Shown here: positions 10,346-47,684 of the stretch, piece by piece | Layout of the letters: every line of letters begins with the position of its first letter | Numbering within the stretch: position 1 is the stretch's first letter | Assembly: GCA_020348985.1 (NCBI GenBank) | Contig: CP070761.1 | Span: forward strand, 1,856,905 to 1,920,904 | Direction: 5' to 3' | Origin: Candidatus Thorarchaeota archaeon | Lineage (GTDB): Archaea; Asgardarchaeota; Thorarchaeia; Thorarchaeales; Thorarchaeaceae | DNA: 64,000 bases | Program-made: the position numbers and the translations under genes | The notes under the pieces: generated by a model | Told to the model about the DNA's origin: nothing | What the model saw: only the letters and a program-made list of their open reading frames with translations | Databases searched by the model: none

Positions 10346-11521
10346 CTAGTCAATCTCGTTTCTACCAGGAATTCCGCCGTATCTGCTGGACGACCCTGTG
10401 TTCAGGAGAACTACGTCCTCGTCATAGTCTATAACGCCAGTATCCACAAGATTCCGAAGGCCCGCTAGCCCAATTGCCGCTTCTGGACAGAAATCCAATC
10501 CCTCAAGTCTAGCGGCCATCCACTGACACGACTCAATCTCTGAATCAGTGGCTGCTACCGCTCCTCCCCCTGATCGTTGGATGACTTTCATCATTAACCT
10601 ATCAGCGAAAGGCTTCGGGACTCTCAACCCATATGCTCTGGTTTCGCCTCTAGGCCATGCTTCAATCTCTTCTGTACCTCTTTCGAATGCTCTAACGACA
10701 GGTGCACAGCCTCCGCTCTGAACAGCATACATTCTAGGACGTCTGTCGTCAATTAGCCCAAGGGTCTCCAACTCCTCGAAGCCTTTCCATATGCCAATCA
10801 AAGACGTTCCTCCTCCTGTTGGACATATGACCACATCCGGAACCGTCCATCCCATCTGTTCAGCAATCTCAAATGCCATTGTCTTTTTGCCCTCAACGCG
10901 ATATGGCTCCTTAGTAGTACTCAAGTCTGTCCAACCACCATCCCGCACTTGCATCTCTGCAGCTGCATCCACAATGGTTCCCTCAACCAAGATCACCTCA
11001 GCTCCAAACGCCCGACAACTATCTATGAACTGCTGAGGCGTATCTTCAGGCATGAAGGCATGGGCTGAAGTTCCACTTGCGGCACAATACGCACTCATCG
11101 ATACTGCGGCATTCCCAGCAGATGGAAGCGCGAAAGAGTCGACTCCCATTTCTAGATGTTTCGAGATTGCTGCGCAGAGACCTCGGTCCTTGAAGCTTAA
11201 AGTTGGATTCTTTGCTTCATCCTTTATTCTTAGCATTCTAAGTCCCAAATGTGTGCCCAATCGTCGTGTCAGAAGAAGCGGTGTCCAGCCCTCGCCAAGA
11301 CTTACAACGAATGATGGCGACTTGACGGGAAGTAGCTCGGAGTATCTCCACATTGAATTCGCTGACGATGGGAACTCTCCAGATTCGATCGCCTCAACCA
11401 CACCTCTCATGTCGTATCTTGCGAACAAAGGCGTCCCGCAAAGGCAGTATGTCGCAGGCATTTCTGCGGAATGCTTTCTTCCACATTGCGGACACTCTAG
11501 ATGGGAGATGTGTGATATCAC
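10346..11521 (-). CDS. thrC: Threonine synthase (fold-type II PLP enzyme)
   Basis: N-terminal Zn ribbon, SLGEGWTPL, NPTLSFKDRG (PLP lysine), SAGNA, EGKKT and PTGGG. Confidence 0.85.
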   Translation of the reverse strand: MISHISHLECPQCGRKHSAEMPATYCLCGTPLFARYDMRGVVEAIESGEFPSSANSMWRYSELLPVKSPSFVVSLGEGWTPLLLTRRLGTHLGLRMLRIKDEAKNPTLSFKDRGLCAAISKHLEMGVDSFALPSAGNAAVSMSAYCAASGTSAHAFMPEDTPQQFIDSCRAFGAEVILVEGTIVDAAAEMQVRDGGWTDLSTTKEPYRVEGKKTMAFEIAEQMGWTVPDVVICPTGGGTSLIGIWKGFEELETLGLIDDRRPRMYAVQSGGCAPVVRAFERGTEEIEAWPRGETRAYGLRVPKPFADRLMMKVIQRSGGGAVAATDSEIESCQWMAARLEGLDFCPEAAIGLAGLRNLVDTGVIDYDEDVVLLNTGSSSRYGGIPGRNEID

Positions 11522-35307: not shown

Positions 35308-37911
35308 ATGAGTGGGACCAAAGAGGGAAGAGCGCAGACCCCAAGCACAGTTGAAGCAATAAGAATGGCCTCAGCGTCCATACTTGCTACCTCAACCGGA
35401 AGAGGCTTTCCATTGGGGAGTGCTATTGGCTCTGGAAGAGTCATGGAAGAGAACTCCGAGCTTGTAGCAATGAACGTTGCCTCATTGATTTTCGCCATTC
35501 GAGATCCCTTAATGAACAATGAAGGGTTGGATCTTCTAGCCCTTGAATGGAACTTGGATCATCCTCCTGGATCAAGAGTATTGCCGGAACAGCTCATTGT
35601 TGCCGGAGGTTTCGCGCAGGGAGTAGGGTCTCATGTCTGCGTTCTCAGCTGGGAGCGGGGGGTCATTGATCCCTTCAAGATCGACGACCACATGAAGACT
35701 CTCTCAAAAAAGATCTCAGACATCGAAGCGGCAGTGATTCACAACAATCTTCCCTATGAAAAGGAAGGTCTAATGGTCCTAAGACGATTCAACGACCGAC
35801 TGAACAGTGTTATCTTTGTTGAGATGATGGACAGAAGATTCCAAGGTTCATGGGATTCCCTTCAAATCAAACCCGACCATGTTGACAACCAGCTGCAAAT
35901 CAAGATGAACATCAAAGAGGACTTCACGTCAAGACCTCCAGGGACAAAGGTTGTTTCGCGAAAGGAGATAGATTTCCTCAAGCCAGCAGCAGACGAATCA
36001 GCTTTGATCGAACACTTCAAACATAGGTTACTGACTCCTGCTGCTGTAGAGGCGTTGACCGTTACTATTCCAGAAACTGGACGGGCAATACTGAGTGAGA
36101 TAAACACTCATGCATATTCCTCTGAGGAGATTGCCTCAGCTGGCATCGCTGTCAAGTACTTGCGTGAATACGCGGGAACTGATTCCGTCGCGCTCACCGA
36201 GATTGATGAAATCGTCACCAAGAGTGAAGAGTATTCCAAACTCTTGGAGGACGCAGTTGCCGTCTTCGAGGAGATTGTTGAACACCATATCTCATCTGGA
36301 AAAACTCTGACCATGGCGAATCACAAGAACGAACTATTCAACCTAATCTCATCAAGGAGTTCAGATCTGACCAGCATCAAGGAGAAGATTGTCACATCAT
36401 TAGTTGAAGAGATGACTCTCTCGGTATCAAGAGAGCTGCCCGGAGGCGGCGAAGTCCGGGCGTGGCAACTCAAAAGTATGATGCGCTACTTTGTCGCTTA
36501 CGCTAAACGTGTGGTCCAGTACTTCTCCCCGGAGCTTGGAGAGTACCTGGTTGTGGCTGGAGCAAGGAAGGTTCTTGTGGCTGCATTCAACGAATTCAAG
36601 CAAGAGCTGACCGGCGAGAGCGTAGATGCCATAGACCGGCTCCTAACAAATAAGTTCGGCGCCGAACTAATAGCACAACTCAACGCGATCTTCGACAGAA
36701 AGGCTTTCGAAGGGTCGAAGGAAACCCGCGTGGACAAACTGACGTCAGAAGCGGCGACGGAAATGGTCAATGCTTTCAAAGAGATAGATGTCTGGAGCCT
36801 TGTCAAGTTTGCAGACTTGGCCGAGACTGCACGAAGTGACATCGCACAGGAGCCAAGTGAACCAACTCCAGTTAGTGATGCGATTTCAGAAGATTCTCAA
36901 AGTGGCATCGCGGACCTCCTGTTAAGTTATGAATTACTAGCAACAGAAACCATTCCTGATGTTGCTCAAACAGTTCTTTCAAAGTCGATTCTTGAACGCA
37001 CAATCGAGAATGCGACTAGTGGCAGTAGTCTTTCTGACGGGCTTCTGGCGGCGGTCAACGAGATTCCGGACAAGGCGCCAGAGTGGACATCCCTAGCTCA
37101 TGAATGGATTGCAGAGTTCTGGAACCAATTGGATCTGAATCTGCCCCTCTCATCCCAGCTCACAGCATTCGCAAAGCATGTTCATGAAAAGGCGACTAAG
37201 GCTTCAGGTCCCCGAATTGTAGTAGATCGAGTGGTGGAAGAAGCCAGACATCTTGAGGAGAAGTTTGAAGAGAAGGTCAATGAATGGCGAGAAGAATGCA
37301 ATAGGATAGAGCAAGAGAATGCAGAGATTGAAGCACATAACAAAAGGCGACATTCTGCTATTGAAGAAACAACTGCACAATTCGAGACTGAACAGGAAGT
37401 GTACTCTCGTGAACTTCGAGCATATGAAGAAAGCAAAGAGGATCCCGAGTCGACATTAGTTCAGCCCAGCCCCCCGGAACCAATTGAACCCCGGCTTGAG
37501 AGGGTAAAACACGATTATCCCTTGAAGGAGCTTCTGAGTCCTCCATCAAAGCCAGAGCCTTCGGATGAACTCCTTCGCTATCGGGATTTCAAGAATCTCC
37601 TTGTTGAGAAGCTCCAAGCTATGAGCGAAAGACAGGAGGCGCTTGAAAGCGCGTTTTCAGAGCGTCTTACACGACTTGCATCTGAAGGTGCAGACACATC
37701 TGGAGATGTTCGTATCGACATTACTGATTCATTCTTGGATCACATAATGGACTCAGTTATACGTGGGATGGGCAGATTGCTCCCTCGCTCTACGCGCGCT
37801 TATCTAAGAAATCCGGAAGATCCGGGGTTGGTCTATCTTGTGACCTATGAACAACAAGGTGACGAGTTGATTGTAACCGTCGGTGACACTTTTCTAAGAG
37901 GTGATGCCTAA
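35308..37911 (+). CDS. Large hypothetical protein (possible N-terminal longin-like domain, helical body, coiled coil)
   Basis: 867-aa ORF with a coiled-coil/Pro-rich insert. Its stop overlaps the next start (TAATG). Confidence 0.75.
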   Translation: MSGTKEGRAQTPSTVEAIRMASASILATSTGRGFPLGSAIGSGRVMEENSELVAMNVASLIFAIRDPLMNNEGLDLLALEWNLDHPPGSRVLPEQLIVAGGFAQGVGSHVCVLSWERGVIDPFKIDDHMKTLSKKISDIEAAVIHNNLPYEKEGLMVLRRFNDRLNSVIFVEMMDRRFQGSWDSLQIKPDHVDNQLQIKMNIKEDFTSRPPGTKVVSRKEIDFLKPAADESALIEHFKHRLLTPAAVEALTVTIPETGRAILSEINTHAYSSEEIASAGIAVKYLREYAGTDSVALTEIDEIVTKSEEYSKLLEDAVAVFEEIVEHHISSGKTLTMANHKNELFNLISSRSSDLTSIKEKIVTSLVEEMTLSVSRELPGGGEVRAWQLKSMMRYFVAYAKRVVQYFSPELGEYLVVAGARKVLVAAFNEFKQELTGESVDAIDRLLTNKFGAELIAQLNAIFDRKAFEGSKETRVDKLTSEAATEMVNAFKEIDVWSLVKFADLAETARSDIAQEPSEPTPVSDAISEDSQSGIADLLLSYELLATETIPDVAQTVLSKSILERTIENATSGSSLSDGLLAAVNEIPDKAPEWTSLAHEWIAEFWNQLDLNLPLSSQLTAFAKHVHEKATKASGPRIVVDRVVEEARHLEEKFEEKVNEWREECNRIEQENAEIEAHNKRRHSAIEETTAQFETEQEVYSRELRAYEESKEDPESTLVQPSPPEPIEPRLERVKHDYPLKELLSPPSKPEPSDELLRYRDFKNLLVEKLQAMSERQEALESAFSERLTRLASEGADTSGDVRIDITDSFLDHIMDSVIRGMGRLLPRSTRAYLRNPEDPGLVYLVTYEQQGDELIVTVGDTFLRGDA

Positions 37912-40355
37912 TGTCCAGTTCATGGATTCTCAAAACTCGTCAGATGAGCGAGGCTGGCAAGGAAATACTTCTCAGAGAAGGACTGGCTACTCACATGAGA
38001 AGCACCAGGGATCGTCAGCAGGTGACCGATATTCTGAAGGAGAAGAGGCCACTTGAGGATATCCTTTCTTGGTTCTCTGCCTTCTGGCTCTATCACTATC
38101 AAGGGGTTCGCGTGCTCAGTTTCGAAGACGCCCAAGACCTAACCGTTGAGAGAAAAGATGAGATGGAGCGCGAAGAGCGCAGGCACCTTGAGCTTGAGAT
38201 TAGAAAGCTTTTGGGTGACAAACACAGAGAAGAGATAGACATTGCACGGTTGGCTAGCGAACTGATTGTTCAGGTCTGCAATGAGTTGGGGGGTTCCAAT
38301 ATTGCTGAACCATCTACTCTCGAGAAATGTTCCGATATTGTCAAGAAGTTTCTTGGTGAGATTCCAAAGGACTACAGTCCTAATCACGACATCGATTTCA
38401 TAGCCACAATCACAGGCTGGGCGTCAAAGTGGAGGGATGAACTTTATACAAAGGCCTCTGGTCTAAAGGAGACTGCGCTCTCTCTTAGAGATGAGGTCCT
38501 TCGTGAACATCCTGCGGAAGTCATCGAAACATCTGTTTTGAGGCAGGCTACCAAGCAAATCCTCAATACTGACAACTACTTGGCTGGCCGATTGATTGCT
38601 GGTGGCATTTCGGAGAAGACGCTTGGCGATATATCAGAAGCTGTGCTCCACAGGGTGATTGGCGGAAGAGTGCCTGTGGAAACAGTTCGAAAAGCTCATG
38701 AGATTAGGCTAGAGACAATTGACTTCCTACTTGGCTCCTATGAATCCCCAACAACGATTGAGGAATACGAGAAAACCCTTGGTGATGAATTGGCAAGGGG
38801 AGTTGCAGCGGGAATCAGGGACAATCCAGCAGAGGCATTTGGACTGCTTTCGGTACTTTTTGATCTGGATGCTGAAGATATCAAGGCGGCCCTTAGGTCA
38901 AAAGGACTCACTGATGCAGAGGATATCGCGGCCGGATTGATTGAACAGGCCAAAGAGCCTACTCCTGAGGATGAAGGACCCCAAATCAGCGCTGAAGAGA
39001 TGCAGGACCTAGAAAGGTCGCTAAAGCAGCTTGAGAAGTTGGAGAAGACTTTGGAGGGTCCAGTCAAGGGTATGCTGCGAGCCCAAGGACTGCGTCCATC
39101 AGAGCTCGATAAGATTACAGTCGAGTTCCTTCTCAAGGACAGAGACAGCCTACTGGGTATGGAACCAAAGGTGCTTGAGACACTGAAGCAGAATGCCCGA
39201 ATCCCTTCGCCAAAAGAGATGGAGCGACTATTCCAAGTGCGGCAACAGGTTGAGAGCGGAGCTCTGAGTACAATGGGTGTGACTTCATCGTCTGAGATGA
39301 TGCAACAGAGACGACAAGAGGAATCGTCCGGGGCGCTCAAGCTAGACTTGGTTTGGCATTTCACAATTGGTATACTCTCGAATCTCACAAGAGTGGTGGA
39401 GAGTTATATCAGGTCGAAGCAGGACCTGTTGAGAATGAAGGCTCTTCTGAAGAGCATTCACGAAGATACTGAGCCTGAACTTCAATATGCAAGAGAAGAG
39501 ATTCTGGTCGATCTCGCATCAATGAGGATTTGCGAATTTAAATGTGTGAATCCAGAGCTTGATGCATCAGCGGTATGCTCCTGGATGCACGCTCGTCTGT
39601 CAAGCAAAGACATGAATGCCGCCAAGGTTGAGCTTGAAAAGACACCAAGCCCTGTCTATGATGGAATTTCCGACCTTCCTCTTGATCTTTCGAATCTGGA
39701 GTTTGACAACTACGGAATTGCCTACGACCTCATGCACAGGTTTCTGCAGCAAGAGCGTCTTGAGAAGATGGCAAAGGAAGAACACGCGATAGAGGTTGAG
39801 GCGGAGAAGCAGAGAGCACTCGAGGAAAGGCGCGGACGTATTGACGCTATTTCTTGGATCGACACGAAGAGCAAGACTGTCTTCAGAGCCATAGGCAGAG
39901 TTGGGACAAAGGGGCTTGAATGGTCCGGAAATGATGAGACAAAGTGTTCCAATCTTCTGGCATTCTACATTCGACAGCACAGGGGACGTCCTGTGTGTAT
40001 AGCCTGCGGAGATACTCCAGAAGATGGCAAGTGCCCGAGGCATGGAACAGCGAACATTTCCGCAAGCGATGATATGGACACTTTGACTGTGTTCATCATG
40101 GAAGCTATCACCACAATGAAAACGAGCCTCATCGGGCCGAAAGCACAGCCAATGACATGGGATGAGGCTCGGAAGATTGTTCAGAAGACAATAGATGATG
40201 TCAAGCGAGACGGGAAGCTAACTTCGAAGACGAATCTGAAAGAACTGATGCAAGGTGACATCAACCACGTAGTAGGTCCCGCTATTGCCAAGGTCATTGG
40301 AAAATACTTTGACGAATCACTGCAATATGCAGCCAGACGTTCGGGCCTTTCATAG
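37911..40355 (+). CDS. Large hypothetical helical protein with a CxxC...CxxH zinc knuckle
   Basis: 814-aa ORF, translationally coupled to the upstream gene; CIACG...CPRH. Confidence 0.75.
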   Translation: MSSSWILKTRQMSEAGKEILLREGLATHMRSTRDRQQVTDILKEKRPLEDILSWFSAFWLYHYQGVRVLSFEDAQDLTVERKDEMEREERRHLELEIRKLLGDKHREEIDIARLASELIVQVCNELGGSNIAEPSTLEKCSDIVKKFLGEIPKDYSPNHDIDFIATITGWASKWRDELYTKASGLKETALSLRDEVLREHPAEVIETSVLRQATKQILNTDNYLAGRLIAGGISEKTLGDISEAVLHRVIGGRVPVETVRKAHEIRLETIDFLLGSYESPTTIEEYEKTLGDELARGVAAGIRDNPAEAFGLLSVLFDLDAEDIKAALRSKGLTDAEDIAAGLIEQAKEPTPEDEGPQISAEEMQDLERSLKQLEKLEKTLEGPVKGMLRAQGLRPSELDKITVEFLLKDRDSLLGMEPKVLETLKQNARIPSPKEMERLFQVRQQVESGALSTMGVTSSSEMMQQRRQEESSGALKLDLVWHFTIGILSNLTRVVESYIRSKQDLLRMKALLKSIHEDTEPELQYAREEILVDLASMRICEFKCVNPELDASAVCSWMHARLSSKDMNAAKVELEKTPSPVYDGISDLPLDLSNLEFDNYGIAYDLMHRFLQQERLEKMAKEEHAIEVEAEKQRALEERRGRIDAISWIDTKSKTVFRAIGRVGTKGLEWSGNDETKCSNLLAFYIRQHRGRPVCIACGDTPEDGKCPRHGTANISASDDMDTLTVFIMEAITTMKTSLIGPKAQPMTWDEARKIVQKTIDDVKRDGKLTSKTNLKELMQGDINHVVGPAIAKVIGKYFDESLQYAARRSGLS

Positions 40356-40369
40356 GACCAAACAGTGAT

Positions 40370-40687
40370 CTAATTCGCAGTGCTTGTGCTGATCCATTCT
40401 AGATAGGCCTTTGAACCACCTTGAATCGGAATCACAACAAACTCAGGAACCTCATATGGGTGGTTGTCCCTAATCGCATCCCACAGTCTGTCCTGGAGTC
40501 GTTTCTCTGTTTTGATTAGGAGAATGCTCTCTGTATCCGTTTCCACTTTGTCCTTCCAGTGATAGATGCTTCTGACTCCACTAACGATGTTGACACATGC
40601 ACAGAATCGGCCGTCCACTAGGATTCTCGCCAAATCTTCAGCCTTATCTGGCGGACATGTTGTTAATGCGAGAATATAGTTTTCCAT
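40370..40687 (-). CDS. cutA: Divalent-cation tolerance protein CutA
   Basis: ACVNI, SIYHW, HPYEVPE and YLEWI. Confidence 0.95.
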   Translation of the reverse strand: MENYILALTTCPPDKAEDLARILVDGRFCACVNIVSGVRSIYHWKDKVETDTESILLIKTEKRLQDRLWDAIRDNHPYEVPEFVVIPIQGGSKAYLEWISTSTAN

Positions 40688-40800
40688 AACTTGGGTATGA
40701 CTCTGCCGCTATTAATCTATAACCTGAAAATGATGAAGTCGTTGGAGGATAGACAGCTTTATACATCAGACGCAAACCAACCACGACTCGGCCGATTGTT

Positions 40801-42201
40801 ATGACTAAGCGTTTTGTCCCCCAAGGGGTGCTTCCAGCTCTTGTTACTCCGTTTACTAAAGATGGAGACCTCATAGAGGAGGGCTTCAAGCAAATCATCG
40901 ATTACACAATTGAGAACGGAGCAACCGGTCTCGTGCCTGCAGGGACGACAGGTGAGTTCCTATATATGCGAACAGAAGAGCGGAAGAAGCTTCTGAAACT
41001 AACGGTCGAATTGGCAGAAGACCGAGTTCCAGTTATAGCAGGAACAGGTCAGAATTCGACAAGAGCCACGGTAGCTTTGACGAAGTATGCTGCGGACATT
41101 GGTTGTGCTGCAGCCCTTGTGGTTTCGCCCTACTTCCTTAGACCCGAAGACAAGGGGTACTTCGAGCACTATGCTGAGGTGGCCCGGAGGGGTGATCTCC
41201 CTGTGATTCTGTATAACATCCCTCAATGTACGCTCGGCATTCTCCAGTCTAATGTTGTTGAGGACCTTGCCGAACTTGACAACATCGTGGCAATAAAAGA
41301 CAGCAGCGGAAGCATTCCACATGTCTTGGAGCTCATTGAGAAGCTGAGAGGAAAGATGCCTGTCCTCATAGGACACGATGAGTGTTTCTTGTCGGCTGTG
41401 GCTGCAGGCGCAACAGCTGCAATCATGGCTTCAGGGAATATAATGCCTCACATCTGGCTAGAGATAATGAAGAACATACGTAACGGTAACATCGAGAAAG
41501 CAGCAGAGCTCCAGCTCTCCGTGCAAACTCTTTCTAGGATAATTACAAGGCATGGAGGTGCCCCTCCCGTAAAGGCAGCACTGAGAATGATGGGAATGAA
41601 TGCTGGAAGAGCAAGAATGCCACTTAATTCCGGAGGCACATTGACTTGGGAGCTTCGTGAGGAAATACGTTTGGAGCTTGAGAAACTGGGCCTCATCGAT
41701 GAGTTGAGTCATGCACCAGTCATGGATGATGTGGATGTCATCGGTTTGATTGACAGGTCTGGGGTTGACAGTTCGCGATTTGAGAATGTCAAGCGTAGCA
41801 TTGGTGCATTTGAGTCTGTTTCCACAGACATCATTCTAGGCAAGAAAGATGGTCCTGTCGGCGAAGCCTTTGTGAAACTGATGATGAATCCGCAAGTAGG
41901 ACATGAAGCCTTGAGCGTCATTCTTGAACCCAATCTGGCTGTGAGACCTAGCGCCATAATGATGCCCGCTCGGAAGATCAAATCGATGCGTCAGGCATCT
42001 CTCTTCTACGGTCCAGTTCAATCAGGAGCCGCAAAGGCAGTAGCTCGCCTCGTAGCTTCTGGAAGAATACCGTCTTCTGATTTTGATGATTCACTAATGA
42101 TAATGGCCGTTGACATTGATCTCAATCTACGTGACAGAAGGACGGCAACTAGTCACACCGAGAGAGCTGTCACTAAAGCTCTTGAGCAGCTGTGGAGGTG
42201 A
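40801..42201 (+). CDS. DapA/NAL-family class I aldolase fused to a degenerate formaldehyde-activating enzyme (Fae) domain, copy A
   Basis: PALVTPF, GTTGE, YNIP and KDSSG. The C-terminus has the Fae central motifs GPVGEAF...GHEAL.VILEPNL...P...FYGPVQ. Confidence 0.85.
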   Translation: MTKRFVPQGVLPALVTPFTKDGDLIEEGFKQIIDYTIENGATGLVPAGTTGEFLYMRTEERKKLLKLTVELAEDRVPVIAGTGQNSTRATVALTKYAADIGCAAALVVSPYFLRPEDKGYFEHYAEVARRGDLPVILYNIPQCTLGILQSNVVEDLAELDNIVAIKDSSGSIPHVLELIEKLRGKMPVLIGHDECFLSAVAAGATAAIMASGNIMPHIWLEIMKNIRNGNIEKAAELQLSVQTLSRIITRHGGAPPVKAALRMMGMNAGRARMPLNSGGTLTWELREEIRLELEKLGLIDELSHAPVMDDVDVIGLIDRSGVDSSRFENVKRSIGAFESVSTDIILGKKDGPVGEAFVKLMMNPQVGHEALSVILEPNLAVRPSAIMMPARKIKSMRQASLFYGPVQSGAAKAVARLVASGRIPSSDFDDSLMIMAVDIDLNLRDRRTATSHTERAVTKALEQLWR

Positions 42202-42206
42202 AACAG

Positions 42207-43682
42207 ATGTCGGAGGATTTCAGATTCAGAGGTGTGTTTCCTGCTCTTGTGACTCCATTTGGTGAGGACGGCGTTGATGAGGAGAAGTATAGGGGTCTGA
42301 TTGACTACGTCATAAGAAGTGGTGCCACCGGGCTTGTCCCTTGTGGGACTACTGGTGAATTCACAAGCATGAGATTCGAGGAGAGAGTAGATGCAATTCG
42401 AATTGCCTGTGACGCAGCAGAAGGTAGAGTCCCCGTTATGGCCGGCACCGGAGCTCCAAACACTCGTGATGCAATCAAGCTGACGAAGAGAGCAGCTGAG
42501 TTTGGAGCAGAGGCCGCTCTGGTTGTTTCCCCGTATTTCCTCAAGCCTACTACAAAAGAGATCTATGAGCACTATGAGAAGATTGCTAGTTCAAGTGACA
42601 TCCCTATTTTCCTTTATAACATTCCACAGGTGACCGGTGTGCCTCTCGACTGGTGGCTGGTCGATGGTCTCAGAGAGATTGACGGCGTTGCGGGAATGAA
42701 AGATTCGAGTGGCAATCTGATTAACTTGACAACAGTTCTAGTCAGACGACCTGAGGAATTCCAAGTTGTGGTTGGCCATGATGAGGTAGCACTCCCCGCG
42801 TTGGCTTCAGGTTGCGATGGGGCGATCTTGATGAGCGCCAATGTGTTTCCTGACCGCTACATAAAGATGCAAACCGCTCTTGCCAGGGGAGATCTGAAAG
42901 AGGCATTTCTTGTTCAGCGGAGCATCCAGAAGACAATCCGGCTTCTGGTCAACCGAGGGGGAGGAATGGCAATAAAGGCGGCCCTCAACATGATGGGTGT
43001 CCCAGTCGGAAAAGCAAGGGGACCGCTCATCGAAGGTGACATACTCCGCTACGAAGACATTGATGAATTGAGAACATGTCTTGAGGATCTGCAACTGATC
43101 CCGCGCGGTACTGTCACTTTCAAGGCTGGAGAGAAAGCCATAGTTTCAGAAGGCTACCCAAAGGCAGTTGGACTAGTTCCCGATTCGGTCCCCGACTTGA
43201 CTCTCCTCCACGGCGAGGCACTTGCTGGAGAGGGCCAAGAGGTAGCACATGTCGATCTTGTCATGGGTCTCAAGGACGGACCTCTTGCTGTCGCCATTGA
43301 CAGTGCAGACAAGATTGAGGAAGGATTCCACCCTTCCAATGTCATAAAGGACCTAGAACCACTAACGGTCTTCGCTCCAACAGTAACAATTGTTGACGAG
43401 AGCCACAAGACGATGGTGTATGACACTGCCCAGAGGGCCGTGGCGGACGCAGTCAGACGCACAGTCACTGATATGATTATACCCGAAGAGCTGATACCGG
43501 ACATCGCAATAGCGGTGAATACGTTCGTGCATCCAAACGCAAACAATCCAAGGAGAGTACACATCAACAACTTCAGAGCAACGAGGCATGCCATACGCAG
43601 AGCAATCGAACGCAGACAAGACATAGAAGAAATTGCTGCACGGATAGATTCGGCACGACACCCATTCGCCTACAATCCTTAG
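42207..43682 (+). CDS. DapA/NAL-family class I aldolase fused to a Fae domain, copy B
   Basis: GGAGGTGA RBS; GTTGE, YNIP and KDSSG. The C-terminus has the Fae terminal motifs GEALAGEGQEVAHVDL...FVHP...NFRAT...ARHPF. Confidence 0.88.
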   Translation: MSEDFRFRGVFPALVTPFGEDGVDEEKYRGLIDYVIRSGATGLVPCGTTGEFTSMRFEERVDAIRIACDAAEGRVPVMAGTGAPNTRDAIKLTKRAAEFGAEAALVVSPYFLKPTTKEIYEHYEKIASSSDIPIFLYNIPQVTGVPLDWWLVDGLREIDGVAGMKDSSGNLINLTTVLVRRPEEFQVVVGHDEVALPALASGCDGAILMSANVFPDRYIKMQTALARGDLKEAFLVQRSIQKTIRLLVNRGGGMAIKAALNMMGVPVGKARGPLIEGDILRYEDIDELRTCLEDLQLIPRGTVTFKAGEKAIVSEGYPKAVGLVPDSVPDLTLLHGEALAGEGQEVAHVDLVMGLKDGPLAVAIDSADKIEEGFHPSNVIKDLEPLTVFAPTVTIVDESHKTMVYDTAQRAVADAVRRTVTDMIIPEELIPDIAIAVNTFVHPNANNPRRVHINNFRATRHAIRRAIERRQDIEEIAARIDSARHPFAYNP

Positions 43683-44288: not shown

Positions 44289-47200
44289 CTAGTAGCCTTG
44301 GAGATACTCCATGTGCTCAAACCATCTCTCATCAGGCGAGAACTCCTTAACTCCTAGTTCTCTCAAACGGGTCTGAATGCTCTTGATAGCCGTAGCGTCT
44401 TTGGTTTCTCGATAGAGGACTAGAAGATTGCTGAGAATCTTGACAAATGCAGTTTGGTGAAACCTCGGCTCCTTCAGTGCAAAAGGTTCCAATGTATCGA
44501 GAGCTTCTTTGCACATCTTTTCTGATTTCTTAGAATGGCCTGTTCTTCTATAGTATATTCCGAGGTTGTTTAAAATCGACGCAACTCTAGGCAGAAAGAA
44601 GCTCTCTGAATCATCTACATAACTCCTGTGGATCTCAAGCGCTTTCAAGAATCTTGATTCTGCCTCTGGTATGCGGTTGTTTTCGCATAGAAGAATACCG
44701 GTGTTGCTTTCTATTGCAGCAACAGAGTAGAGAAACATCTCAGGAGCAAAACCAATACGCGCGTCGATCACACCTCTTGCCTCTTCCAGCAGCCTCTCAG
44801 CATCAGTCCATAGTTCGTTTCTCTTATAGAATACTCCTAGATTGTTGGCAACATTCCCATAGACCTCAGCCAATGACGCCGCTTCCGGATGCTTCAGAGA
44901 CACATCCTTTGCCATCTCATATGCCTCTAGAAGCGTTTCTTGCACGCCCTTCACTTTGCCCATCCGACAATGCAACACACCTAGATTATTCAGGGCCGCA
45001 GCCAGTCGATGCGTGTATCTCTCTGGGTAGTTCTCTACAAGTGCTCTTAGCAGTCTGATTGACTCTAGACAGGCGTTTTCAGCTTCATGTAATCTGTCTG
45101 AAGAAACCAAGAGATTCGAATAATCCTGCAGAGTCTTGGCAAGTGGTTGAGAATATGGTTTCTCCTCCTCAAGCATCACCCTAAGTTCTCGAATCACTTC
45201 TCTGAAGACTTCCTCTGCTTCCTGATATTGACCTGTCTGAAAGAGTGGAAGTGCCAAGCTGCTTTCTGCCATTGTCACTTGAGCTTGCATACCCGATTGT
45301 TCCAGAGCAAGCTTCTTGTAAGCATCTACTACTGCCTTCCTCACTTCAAGTTGTTCGATATGTCTGTGCTGAAGACGTAGAGTAATTCCAAGACGACCAA
45401 GTGTCATGTTTCTTATGACTAATTCATCGCTTGATTCTAGGACATCTCTGAGGATTGTTTCAGCTTCTGAAGTCTTTCCGGAAATGTACAGCACCTGAGC
45501 CAAAAGGATTCGTGCGAATTGGAGCATTGGATAGGTTCCTTCTTCTGGGCTATAATGAGGTCTCCTATCTTCATTCTCCAAGATGACTAAGGCTTTTCTA
45601 ACGCATCTCTCCGCTTCTTCCAGACGATACATCAGTGATAGATGTTGTCCTAGATAGTGATAGGTCGAAGCCAAATAACCCTCTTTCATGTGTATATGCC
45701 TATCATCTTGTGGGTCAAACGTATTCAACATCTCTAGTGTTCTTCGAAAAGCTTCTTCAGCTTCGTACATCTTGGCTGATTCTTGATAAAACCGAGCTTG
45801 AAACCAGAGTGCCTTTGAAAGGAATATTGCATTGTCATCAGAGAGTCTCTCAGAGATCTCAATGACTTTCTTGAGTGTGTCCTCGGCCTCTGCAATTCTA
45901 TCAACTAGGCGGAAGAGGTAACTTCTCCAGCCTTCTCTCGCTATCAAGCCAATGTCTGACTTGATGAAGAACGAATCCAGCACTACAAGTGCGTCATCCC
46001 ATTCATTTGCAAAGCCCAAAGCATCCAATACTTGTTCTAATCTCATAAGAGTTCCAATTTCATCATCCAAAGCTAGCACGGATAATGCTAGGCCAAGGAG
46101 TCTGTAGTCTGCTTGATCTTGTGAAGCCCTTTCCAGTCGCTGACCGACCTCGTTCGCCAGATCTTTTAGATTTCCTCCAAGTTCAGCTCTCACAATTTCC
46201 TCTGCCAGATCATGGAGAACCCAAGTCCCGTCCTCTCTTCTACTAAGGAAACTTAGGCGTCTTAGTCGATCCCAACTGTCTGGGGTCATTTCTGGAGCAA
46301 TGATGCTCATTATTCGATAATCGAAATAGGGAACTAATCCTGCACGATTTATGAGATTGTGCAACCCTTCGGCATGACTAAACAGACGTCTCCATACTTT
46401 TAGGCGAACCTCAGCAAGAGTATCAGCACGGAGTCCTTCAATGTCTTCTATAGACACGTTGCTGGTATTGATCATATCACATATGGCATCAATCAGGAAG
46501 GGATTTCCGCCACTGACACTCACAATTCTTTCTTGAAGCTCCTCATCAACAACGCCTTGAAGTGTGAGCATCTCGAGGCAACTATCCCTGTCCAGTTCTG
46601 TAAGCTCATTCTCTTCAACATCCAGTATCTTACCTTTCGCCGCTGAGCGTCTGCTTGCCATTACTCCTACGCAAGATGACAGATTGGACAAGAACAAAGC
46701 CCAGAGTTCTGTCTCAGTAATCCTCTCTCCACTGTATCTCCACTGAGTCTTTTCATTGTCTACATACTCAAAATGGTCTAAAAGAAAGAGAAGCGCAATA
46801 TTCGGATGATTTCTTGTATTGATATCCTCTAGAAATGCTGAAAGGTACAAAAACTCAGCACGTCTAGGATCCTTCCAGAGAATCTCAAGAAGCTGTTCGA
46901 TGTGATTCTTGCCAAGTGTTTCCTGAAGCCATGTCCCAATCGTGCCGTATTTTCCTTTCAGCTTGGGAGTGACCTTTGCACCGACAGCGCTGATTGCACT
47001 TCCAATACTGGCAAGTGATCCAATGAACGGTATCGCCATTACGACATCCTTCGCCCACTCACGTCCCTCTTCTCTTACCGGTTCTACACCTTCAACGAAT
47101 CGTTGACGTATCTGCCAGAGTACGTCGAATCTTGGCAGCTTGACTCCGTGGAGCACAGCTCCTTTGGCAAGCATGTTTAGTCGTTGATAGAACTCAGAAT

Positions 47201-47402
47201 AGTGCTCGCAATCAAGTCGTATTGCTTTCTCATGTGTGTTGACCCAATGGTTGAGTAGGGACGATTTTCCGATACCCCCGATACCTTTCAGGTGAAGGAC
47301 CACGCTTTCATCCTTGCATCTTTCGAGAGCATCATTCATCCACTCGATATACTCCTCTCTATCCACGAACACATCATCGGAAGTTTCGTAGTGCTTGTAC
47401 AA
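44289..47402 (-). CDS. STAND-like P-loop NTPase with a C-terminal TPR array
   Basis: FVDREE, Walker A GIGGIGKS, Walker B FLLDHFE, GGNP and LHDL, followed by TPRs (LAAALNNLG, VASILNNLG). Start refined to TTG 47402 by comparison with the paralog at 63605. Confidence 0.85.
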   Translation of the reverse strand: MYKHYETSDDVFVDREEYIEWMNDALERCKDESVVLHLKGIGGIGKSSLLNHWVNTHEKAIRLDCEHYSEFYQRLNMLAKGAVLHGVKLPRFDVLWQIRQRFVEGVEPVREEGREWAKDVVMAIPFIGSLASIGSAISAVGAKVTPKLKGKYGTIGTWLQETLGKNHIEQLLEILWKDPRRAEFLYLSAFLEDINTRNHPNIALLFLLDHFEYVDNEKTQWRYSGERITETELWALFLSNLSSCVGVMASRRSAAKGKILDVEENELTELDRDSCLEMLTLQGVVDEELQERIVSVSGGNPFLIDAICDMINTSNVSIEDIEGLRADTLAEVRLKVWRRLFSHAEGLHNLINRAGLVPYFDYRIMSIIAPEMTPDSWDRLRRLSFLSRREDGTWVLHDLAEEIVRAELGGNLKDLANEVGQRLERASQDQADYRLLGLALSVLALDDEIGTLMRLEQVLDALGFANEWDDALVVLDSFFIKSDIGLIAREGWRSYLFRLVDRIAEAEDTLKKVIEISERLSDDNAIFLSKALWFQARFYQESAKMYEAEEAFRRTLEMLNTFDPQDDRHIHMKEGYLASTYHYLGQHLSLMYRLEEAERCVRKALVILENEDRRPHYSPEEGTYPMLQFARILLAQVLYISGKTSEAETILRDVLESSDELVIRNMTLGRLGITLRLQHRHIEQLEVRKAVVDAYKKLALEQSGMQAQVTMAESSLALPLFQTGQYQEAEEVFREVIRELRVMLEEEKPYSQPLAKTLQDYSNLLVSSDRLHEAENACLESIRLLRALVENYPERYTHRLAAALNNLGVLHCRMGKVKGVQETLLEAYEMAKDVSLKHPEAASLAEVYGNVANNLGVFYKRNELWTDAERLLEEARGVIDARIGFAPEMFLYSVAAIESNTGILLCENNRIPEAESRFLKALEIHRSYVDDSESFFLPRVASILNNLGIYYRRTGHSKKSEKMCKEALDTLEPFALKEPRFHQTAFVKILSNLLVLYRETKDATAIKSIQTRLRELGVKEFSPDERWFEHMEYLQGY

Positions 47403-47684
47403 ACTCGGGACCTCACACGCAATGCACAAGAGATGTTTGTGTTTTACATAGGCTGGTCGGTTCTTATCATTTCTCCTTTGAATCTCATGGTCCTCTTCAG
47501 AAGAACAGATCTCAGCCCAAATCTCATTCTGTGAAAACGAAGTGGCGGTTTCCGCTGCTTACCGTCTAATCATCGCACTGTGCTCATACAGGGGTAACTG
47601 CTTCATTAACCGCCATGAGTACAGTGAAGTCAGAGCATATGAAACTAACTCGGCATCTTCAGGAATCTTATTATCAGACTTCGA

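Follow-up and report, generated by a model that had tools for sequence, protein, structure and literature searches.

Two adjacent aldolase-Fae fusions

The stretch of 64,000 nucleotides analysed here (positions 1,856,905 to 1,920,904 of contig CP070761.1, assembly GCA_020348985.1; in the following, the window) belongs to the single-contig genome of a Candidatus Thorarchaeota archaeon (3,157,342 bp). It holds two adjacent genes on the + strand, gene A (40801-42201, 466 amino acids) and gene B (42207-43682, 491 amino acids from the ATG). Both encode an aldolase barrel of the dihydrodipicolinate synthase/N-acetylneuraminate lyase (DHDPS/NAL) type, followed by a domain that resembles the formaldehyde-activating enzyme Fae. 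The full set of conserved Fae residues is found in neither chain, and each chain carries a complementary half of it. The pair probably makes up an undescribed enzyme whose two building blocks are known families; searches of the full-text literature turned up no account of a fusion of DHDPS and Fae.

In the case of A, the barrel extends over 40822-41631 (+; residues 8-277, Pfam DHDPS E 1.3e-75) and the Fae-like domain over 41818-42186 (+; residues 340-462, Pfam Fae E 4.9e-31, profile positions 13-135 of 159). In the case of B, with residues numbered in a 496-residue reading that is discussed below, the barrel lies at 42225-43034 (+; residues 12-281, Pfam DHDPS E 9e-73) and the Fae-like domain at 43212-43667 (+; residues 341-492, Pfam Fae E 1.3e-29, profile positions 2-158 of 159). 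The list of open reading frames (ORFs) and Pfam thus bear out the initial annotation, which had described two neighbouring, co-oriented fusions of barrel and Fae. Overall the two proteins are 36% identical, with most of the similarity in the barrels, which by themselves share about 45%. A database search found more than 100 clusters of orthologs for each protein, at 62-84% identity and named Thorarchaeota in the case of A, and at 66-88% identity and 491-492 amino acids in the case of B.

The junction between the two genes reads TGG AGG TGA AAC AG ATG. Here, the Shine-Dalgarno sequence GGAGGTGA (42193-42200, +) overlaps the TGA stop of A (42199-42201) and lies 6 nt ahead of the ATG of B at 42207. 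Because of this overlap, and because the database entries for B are of the 491-residue form that matches this ATG, we place the start of B at 42207; the arrangement also indicates, as far as the sequence can tell, that translation of B is coupled to that of A. A GTG at 42192, which would give the 496-residue reading, is an unlikely start given the strong Shine-Dalgarno sequence that precedes the ATG. A TATA-like element, GCTTTATACAT (TTTATA; 40756-40766, +), can be read about 35-45 nt before the ATG of A and is a candidate archaeal promoter of a two-gene operon.

Reciprocal halves of the Fae site

To describe the Fae domains at the residue level, about 110 A and 105 B orthologs were aligned with 11 canonical Fae-Hps sequences from Asgard archaea. 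The Fae domain of B keeps GEAL..EVAHVDL (GEAL..AHxDL), GP, TVFAPTVT (T..V.T), FVHP, INNF, R..A and SARHPF; its central GH..LLAVIRPNLP loop is 4 residues shorter and diverged, and FGPAQ is gone. In the case of A, the residues kept are G.K, G..F, G.EAL.VILEPNL.VKP and RQAS..YGPVQ (RQASxxYGPxQ across orthologs). The GEA/His/Asp strand residues and FxHP of A are replaced, and the C-terminal HP tail is absent. Wider alignments that included distant relatives showed the same reciprocal pattern. That the two Fae domains have decayed reciprocally, as first pointed out for this pair, therefore holds for the whole family.

Both domains can still be recognised as Fae. The AlphaFold 2 model of the A domain (mean predicted local distance difference test, pLDDT, of 89) matched the solved Fae structures 1Y60 and 1Y5Y by Foldseek with E 2.8e-14 and TM scores of 0.71-0.81, and the next match came only at E of at least 5e-3. 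The B domain matched 1Y5Y by sequence (E 2.2e-18). Regarding the curated Fae model TIGR03126, A and B scored 91.5 and 117.4 bits, both under the cut-off of 118.05.

Predicted interface between A and B

By the structure paper of 2005, canonical Fae is reportedly a homopentamer of one chain, with the same site repeated between adjacent subunits, where tetrahydromethanopterin (H4MPT) is said to be bound. The model of Fae-A with Fae-B reached an ipSAE interface score of 0.88, with 0.34 for the best control, although it covers A+B only and cannot tell hetero- from homo-pairing, and similarity to a complex already solved, the Fae pentamer 1Y5Y, may account in part for its good score; both points count against the model. 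Of 80 solved complexes 58 came up to the ipSAE mark applied, as did 2 of 110 mismatched pairs. Three model runs had at least 87% of contacts in common, with partner pLDDT of at least 78.

Next, the model contacts were placed on the Fae alignment and the canonical invariant columns on each contact face were counted. On the contact face of A, which has 16 such columns, the A family keeps 56% and the B family 4%. On the contact face of B, with 25 columns, the A family keeps 17% and the B family 57%. In the model, the retained halves of A and B face each other across one interface, and what has decayed is on the faces left unused. Such a picture would be expected if, of the two ring interfaces of Fae, one had survived. 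This is the segregation of retained residues to opposite faces that the initial annotation had anticipated.

A closed Fae ring is unlikely because the opposite faces of A and B are decayed, and the model suggests an A:B pair with one composite site instead of a pentamer. The Fae-like domains would pair head to tail, with the central-loop face of A on the His/Asp face of B, and this pairing would rebuild the single inter-subunit pocket of the canonical homopentamer, so that each A:B pair probably bears one composite site. A and B would accordingly form one enzyme as its two subunits, translated in a coupled manner from a common transcript, and they probably work only together. Altogether, a heteromer with a composite Fae site, as proposed in the initial annotation, is well supported computationally by co-occurrence, by conserved gene order and coupling, and by the predicted interface, and we consider it likely. 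If the heteromer is real, it represents a natural case in which the inter-subunit active site of a homo-oligomer was divided between paralogs after duplication. The undivided, ancestor-like form would then still be alive in sister lineages, which makes reconstruction experiments possible.

Co-inheritance and history of the split

Within the GTDB family of the window, 78 of 85 genomes have Fae matches, all of the weak, divergent kind, and about 70 of these 78 have exactly two. The seven genomes with a single Fae match are all fragmented assemblies (190-670 contigs, 62-91% complete), and two genomes that are at least 90% complete are without both A and B. In the Thorarchaeota genome itself, A and B are the only Fae domains; profile searches found no canonical Fae there, and no Hps either (best score 29.7 bits, cut-off 200). 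Pairs in the order A then B, with 4-nt overlaps and the same reciprocal motifs, were detected in three further archaeal lineages, one of them Korarchaeota-like. An overlap of 4 to 10 nt or a tight junction was seen at four further loci, among them the pair of GCA_003560875.1. A check of co-occurrence and synteny, which had been recommended for this pair, thus came out in its favour, with both genes in most Fae-positive genomes of the family and their order kept in four lineages.

Other Asgard families have Fae-Hps, and many also have one fusion of about 500 amino acids in which the barrel is joined to a complete Fae domain. In the Fae tree, the fusion-borne domains form one clade (support 99), within which all B domains (97) and all A domains (89) are each one clade, and the single fusions with complete Fae are short-branched at the base. 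The single complete-Fae fusion has the look of an undivided form. The split is old and extends beyond Thorarchaeia; it would have arisen once, long ago, from an undivided fusion, with the deep order of the tree unsure, as the Fae and barrel trees are quick searches with some long branches.

The barrels are not DapA

The databases name both proteins DapA, because their scores sit just over the curated cut-off of the NCBIfam dapA model TIGR00674 (226.1 bits for A and 227.7 for B, cut-off 206.15). Alignment of the barrels shows the residues expected of the superfamily: GTTGE, PYF, the YNIP tyrosine and the Schiff-base lysine, which lies in IKDSSG in A and in MKDSSG in B. In both, GHDE occupies the place of the DapA motif GDD. 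The arginine that follows YNxP and binds aspartate semialdehyde (ASA), equivalent to Arg138 of Escherichia coli, is absent across 120 A and 121 B orthologs. Its position is taken by Cys in A (YNIPQCTL in 109 of 120 orthologs) and by Val in B (YNIPQVTG in 105 of 121). GHDE corresponds to GxDE, the motif through which substrate hydroxyls are bound in the NAL superfamily. With the NAL, KDG-aldolase, KdgD and HpaI models, A and B scored far below the cut-offs.

The genomic context points in the same direction. Profile searches of the Thorarchaeota genome found no Asd, DapB or homoserine dehydrogenase over cut-off. In the genus g70 of Lokiarchaeia, a stand-alone DapA (299-306 amino acids, 340-351 bits, with YNVPSRTG and LSGDD) adjoins DapB, and the same genomes hold a member of the barrel-Fae fusion family of about 500 amino acids. 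In a quick tree search of the barrels, all fusions formed one clade (99), separate from the DapA-like sequences. The reading that A and B are 4-hydroxy-tetrahydrodipicolinate synthases, as the database names have it, can point to the TIGR00674 scores and to the nearest solved sequences, which are DHDPS (E about 1e-49). Set against the missing arginine, a genome without Asd and DapB, a real DapA-DapB pair next to the fusion in Lokiarchaeia and the separate fusion clade, it is hardly credible. A and B are almost certainly not DapA, which firms up the initial annotation on a point where it had said probably.

Two further DHDPS-like sequences were noted. The third DHDPS-family gene of the Thorarchaeota genome (304 amino acids) was considered as the real DapA and rejected, as it is KdgD-like and under every curated cut-off. 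The genomes of the Lokiarchaeal genus g70 also have a third DHDPS-like domain, a weak match under the cut-off (68-93 bits), within open frames of 699-714 amino acids, e.g. G185:C39:77550-78317. Regarding annotation in general, hundreds of database entries for the fusions are named DapA and a few records carry the name formaldehyde-activating enzyme, so that metabolic reconstructions of Asgard archaea may credit these fusions with a step of the lysine pathway that they cannot perform.

Proposed aldol chemistry and coupling to the one-carbon pool

Both barrels keep the class I catalytic set, with a small, uncharged residue at the position that contacts the substrate carboxylate in DapA. In the barrels of more than 100 orthologs of either protein, and also in the single Asgard fusions, GTTGE, Tyr and Lys are preserved. 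The known relatives of the attached Fae-like domain act on formaldehyde. Of the enzymes that use H4MPT, the Thorarchaeota genome has Mch (427 bits) and Mtd (366 bits).

From these elements a mechanism can be sketched. The composite site most likely binds H4MPT and forms or opens methylene-H4MPT, and the barrels most likely condense the enamine of a 2-oxoacid (pyruvate) with a formaldehyde unit, or run the reverse. The simplest reaction would be 4-hydroxy-2-oxobutanoate <-> pyruvate + one-carbon (C1) unit, for which H4MPT would serve as acceptor or donor, and the complex would shift this unit between H4MPT and the 2-oxoacid without free formaldehyde. We infer the ligand, the aldol chemistry and the direction, and a formaldehyde-type aldol coupling by A/B is accordingly put forward as a tentative proposal, to which we give somewhat less than even odds. 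In the literature searched, aldolases for 4-hydroxy-2-oxobutanoate appear only in work on synthetic methylotrophy. If the coupling is real, the archaea closest to eukaryotes have a new point at which the C1 pool of H4MPT connects with the metabolism of 2-oxoacids or amino acids, and A/B would be a candidate enzyme for formaldehyde-free C1 assimilation, of biotechnological interest. A role of A/B as an H4MPT-dependent substitute for PanB was also considered and rejected, since canonical PanB is present in the genome and in 36 of 41 genomes of the family.

Possible link to homoserine and threonine

A product such as 4-hydroxy-2-oxobutanoate raises the question of where it would be used. ThrC (model NF006050), homoserine dehydrogenase and Asd were counted in a single sample of 161 genomes, drawn evenly and each of at least 85% completeness, and the fusion status of each family was taken from a separate scan of 400 genomes; the family counts come from related genomes and are not independent observations, a limit that weakens the case made from them. 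In f1, the family of the window with its A/B pair, ThrC was found in 39/40 genomes, homoserine dehydrogenase in 2/40 and Asd in 9/40. Three further families that carry the fusion gave, in the same order, 7/7, 0/7 and 0/7 (f14), 2/3, 0/3 and 0/3 (f4) and 2/2, 0/2 and 1/2 (f13). Two families without any Fae domain had ThrC in 14/18 and 9/12 genomes, homoserine dehydrogenase in 13/18 and 11/12 and Asd in 1/18 and 2/12 (f8 and f11, respectively). With Fae-Hps only, f15 showed 3/3 for each of the three, and f16 showed 6/6 for ThrC, 5/6 for homoserine dehydrogenase and 6/6 for Asd.

Lineages that bear ThrC and are without homoserine dehydrogenase, and mostly without Asd, have no known source of homoserine, and 4-hydroxy-2-oxobutanoate made by the fusion could fill this gap. 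The pattern is circumstantial, and that A/B supplies a homoserine precursor, a link already raised in the initial annotation, is rather doubtful. More speculative, and not something we would expect to hold as it stands, is the specific proposal that A/B and the undivided Asgard fusion are methylene-H4MPT:pyruvate hydroxymethyltransferases whose 4-hydroxy-2-oxobutanoate is transaminated to homoserine. If true, C1 units of the Wood-Ljungdahl pathway and pyruvate would feed threonine (and methionine) without aspartate semialdehyde, as a natural counterpart of the reaction in the engineered 'homoserine cycle'. It would also explain why Thorarchaeia have 1-4 ThrC genes and are mostly without Asd and homoserine dehydrogenase. 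The Thorarchaeota genome has three ThrC homologs over the curated cut-off. One ThrC homolog lies in the window itself at 10346-11518 (-) and scores 477.8 bits (NF006050 cut-off 303).

Weighing of alternative explanations

As a whole, the best explanation is an A:B enzyme with a composite Fae site that couples an aldol reaction on a 2-oxoacid to H4MPT, and we give it a probability of roughly 0.55. Several observations weigh against it. The A/B pair of GCA_003560875.1 (PWJQ01000035.1, L032:8544-11449) has lost both Schiff-base lysines and GTTGE, with ALADSSG and GILDATG at the Schiff-base site, and has kept the reciprocal Fae residues; at least one lineage can thus do without aldolase catalysis, and selection can evidently act on the Fae function by itself. 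Regarding the cofactor, a search for beta-RFAP synthase (TIGR00144), which catalyses the committed step on the way to methanopterin, found none in the Thorarchaeota genome, and only one strong and one marginal match in the 40 genomes of its family. The H4MPT-binding residues of 1Y60, for their part, enter the argument only as we presume them to be. Regarding homoserine, genus g70 has the single fusion with ThrC in 0/9 genomes (E<=1e-90) and homoserine dehydrogenase in 0/9, and family f30 carries both the fusion and homoserine dehydrogenase, so that the link cannot be general. In addition, one sampled genome has ThrC without fusion and without homoserine dehydrogenase, and a profile search of the Thorarchaeota genome found no homoserine kinase.

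The pair of GCA_003560875.1 fits a reading in which the selected function is the composite Fae heterodimer alone, as the only activity of the cell that condenses formaldehyde with H4MPT, with the barrels mainly as a dimerising scaffold or as an aldolase not coupled to the Fae site. This would agree with a genome that has no other Fae and no Hps, and with those other Asgard families in which Fae is joined to Hps, a barrel unrelated to that of A and B. We hold it to be unlikely, however, as the catalytic GTTGE, Tyr and Lys are so widely conserved in A, B and the single fusions, and as the genome, which has no Hps, shows no evident source of formaldehyde apart from the barrel. The cofactor finding leads to a different alternative, which is kept because beta-RFAP synthase was not found while Mch and Mtd are present: the composite pocket would accept some pterin that is not finished H4MPT, with the barrel performing an aldol-type step on a cofactor precursor. 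A gene of the RibD_C family (DHFR-like reductase) directly upstream of the GCA_003560875.1 pair, in the same orientation, is in line with this, yet this neighbourhood link is a single case. Nearly all other Asgard families that bear Fae have beta-RFAP synthase, which is present in 37/38 genomes of f22 and 7/7 of f14, and in 6/6 of f16; the families f22, f14, f4 and f13, which have the synthase, carry the fusion too. Furthermore, we know of no step in methanopterin synthesis that requires a pyruvate Schiff-base aldolase, and the alternative appears improbable.

It could also be that A and B act separately, each as a homomeric aldolase with a substrate of its own, and that their Fae domains are remnants in decay or serve a regulatory role. 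Two substrates would be compatible with the low identity of the barrels (about 45%) and with their specificity position, which is Cys in A but Val in B. Against this, the Fae residues that are retained do not vary across distant lineages, and they complement each other instead of being random. Four lineages inherit or lose the two genes together and keep their order and translational coupling, and the model favours the A:B interface, all of which makes separate aldolases quite improbable. The coupled A:B enzyme thus remains our preferred reading of the locus.

Gene neighbourhood

The gene neighbourhood of A/B in Thorarchaeia consists of conserved ORFs without known function, CutA and peptidases, with no metabolic gene among them. 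In the window, a CutA1 gene (40370-40687, -; Pfam E 1.6e-33) is divergent from gene A. It is preceded by two ORFs without a family match, of 867 (35308-37911, +) and 814 amino acids (37911-40355, +), and their order upstream of CutA and the A/B pair is kept in other Thorarchaeota contigs. Downstream of A/B, on the opposite strand, lies a STAND-like protein of 1046 amino acids with AAA_16 and TPR domains (44289-47429, -).

In two Asgard families, a protein of 428 amino acids is encoded directly upstream of the single complete fusion (L052:6683-7966 (+); also at L020, L029 and L031). Its ortholog in the Thorarchaeota genome lies at 2675114-2676379 (-), corresponding to L056:1498-2775 (-). The protein is conserved across Asgard archaea with a mean column identity of 86%, and the Lokiarchaeia and Thorarchaeia sequences are 65% identical. 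No Pfam or NCBIfam family matched it. In an AlphaFold 2 model (pTM 0.80), a helical domain at the N-terminus is followed by a TIM barrel of generic type, and structure searches found no specific relative in the Protein Data Bank (Foldseek E>=6.6e-3; VIA Z<=10.8 among many unrelated barrels).

Comparison with known systems

Regarding the DapA (EC 4.3.3.7)/NAL superfamily, A and B have the same barrel with GTTGE, Tyr and the Schiff-base Lys. They differ in being without the ASA-binding Arg, in having GHDE and not GDD, in the extra Fae domain and in belonging to a genome without the diaminopimelate pathway. Regarding Fae of Methylobacterium extorquens (1Y5Y/1Y60; PF08714; EC 4.2.1.147), the fold is the same and the conserved set, which in one canonical chain comprises GEAL..AHxDL, the PNLP loop, FGPAQ, FIHP, NY.ATK and the HP tail, is present when A and B are combined, whereas each of them holds half of the set and is fused to a barrel.

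PanB offers a functional analogy. It uses methylene-tetrahydrofolate and 2-oxoisovalerate and transfers the C1 unit to C3 of the 2-oxoacid, and the reaction proposed for A/B would likewise move a C1 unit from a methylene-pterin to a 2-oxoacid. PanB, in contrast, is a single protein of an unrelated, metal-dependent fold.

Two other fusions are also relevant here. Fae-Hps (NF009833), known from methanogens such as Methanocaldococcus jannaschii and from most Asgard families, also joins Fae to a barrel that makes or uses formaldehyde, and it occurs in the same phylum. Its partner, however, is Hps, and its Fae domain is N-terminal and complete, whereas in A/B the Fae domain is C-terminal, behind a DHDPS-type barrel, and split over two genes; correspondingly, A and B scored 76-87 bits with NF009833, far under the cut-off of 274. 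The single DHDPS-Fae fusion of Lokiarchaeia and other Asgard archaea, uncharacterised and named DapA, shares the same two domains, the loss of the DapA Arg and the GHDE/GWDE motif, and it forms one clade with A and B. It differs in that the product of a single gene holds every Fae motif, and in that it coexists with Fae-Hps and true DapA.

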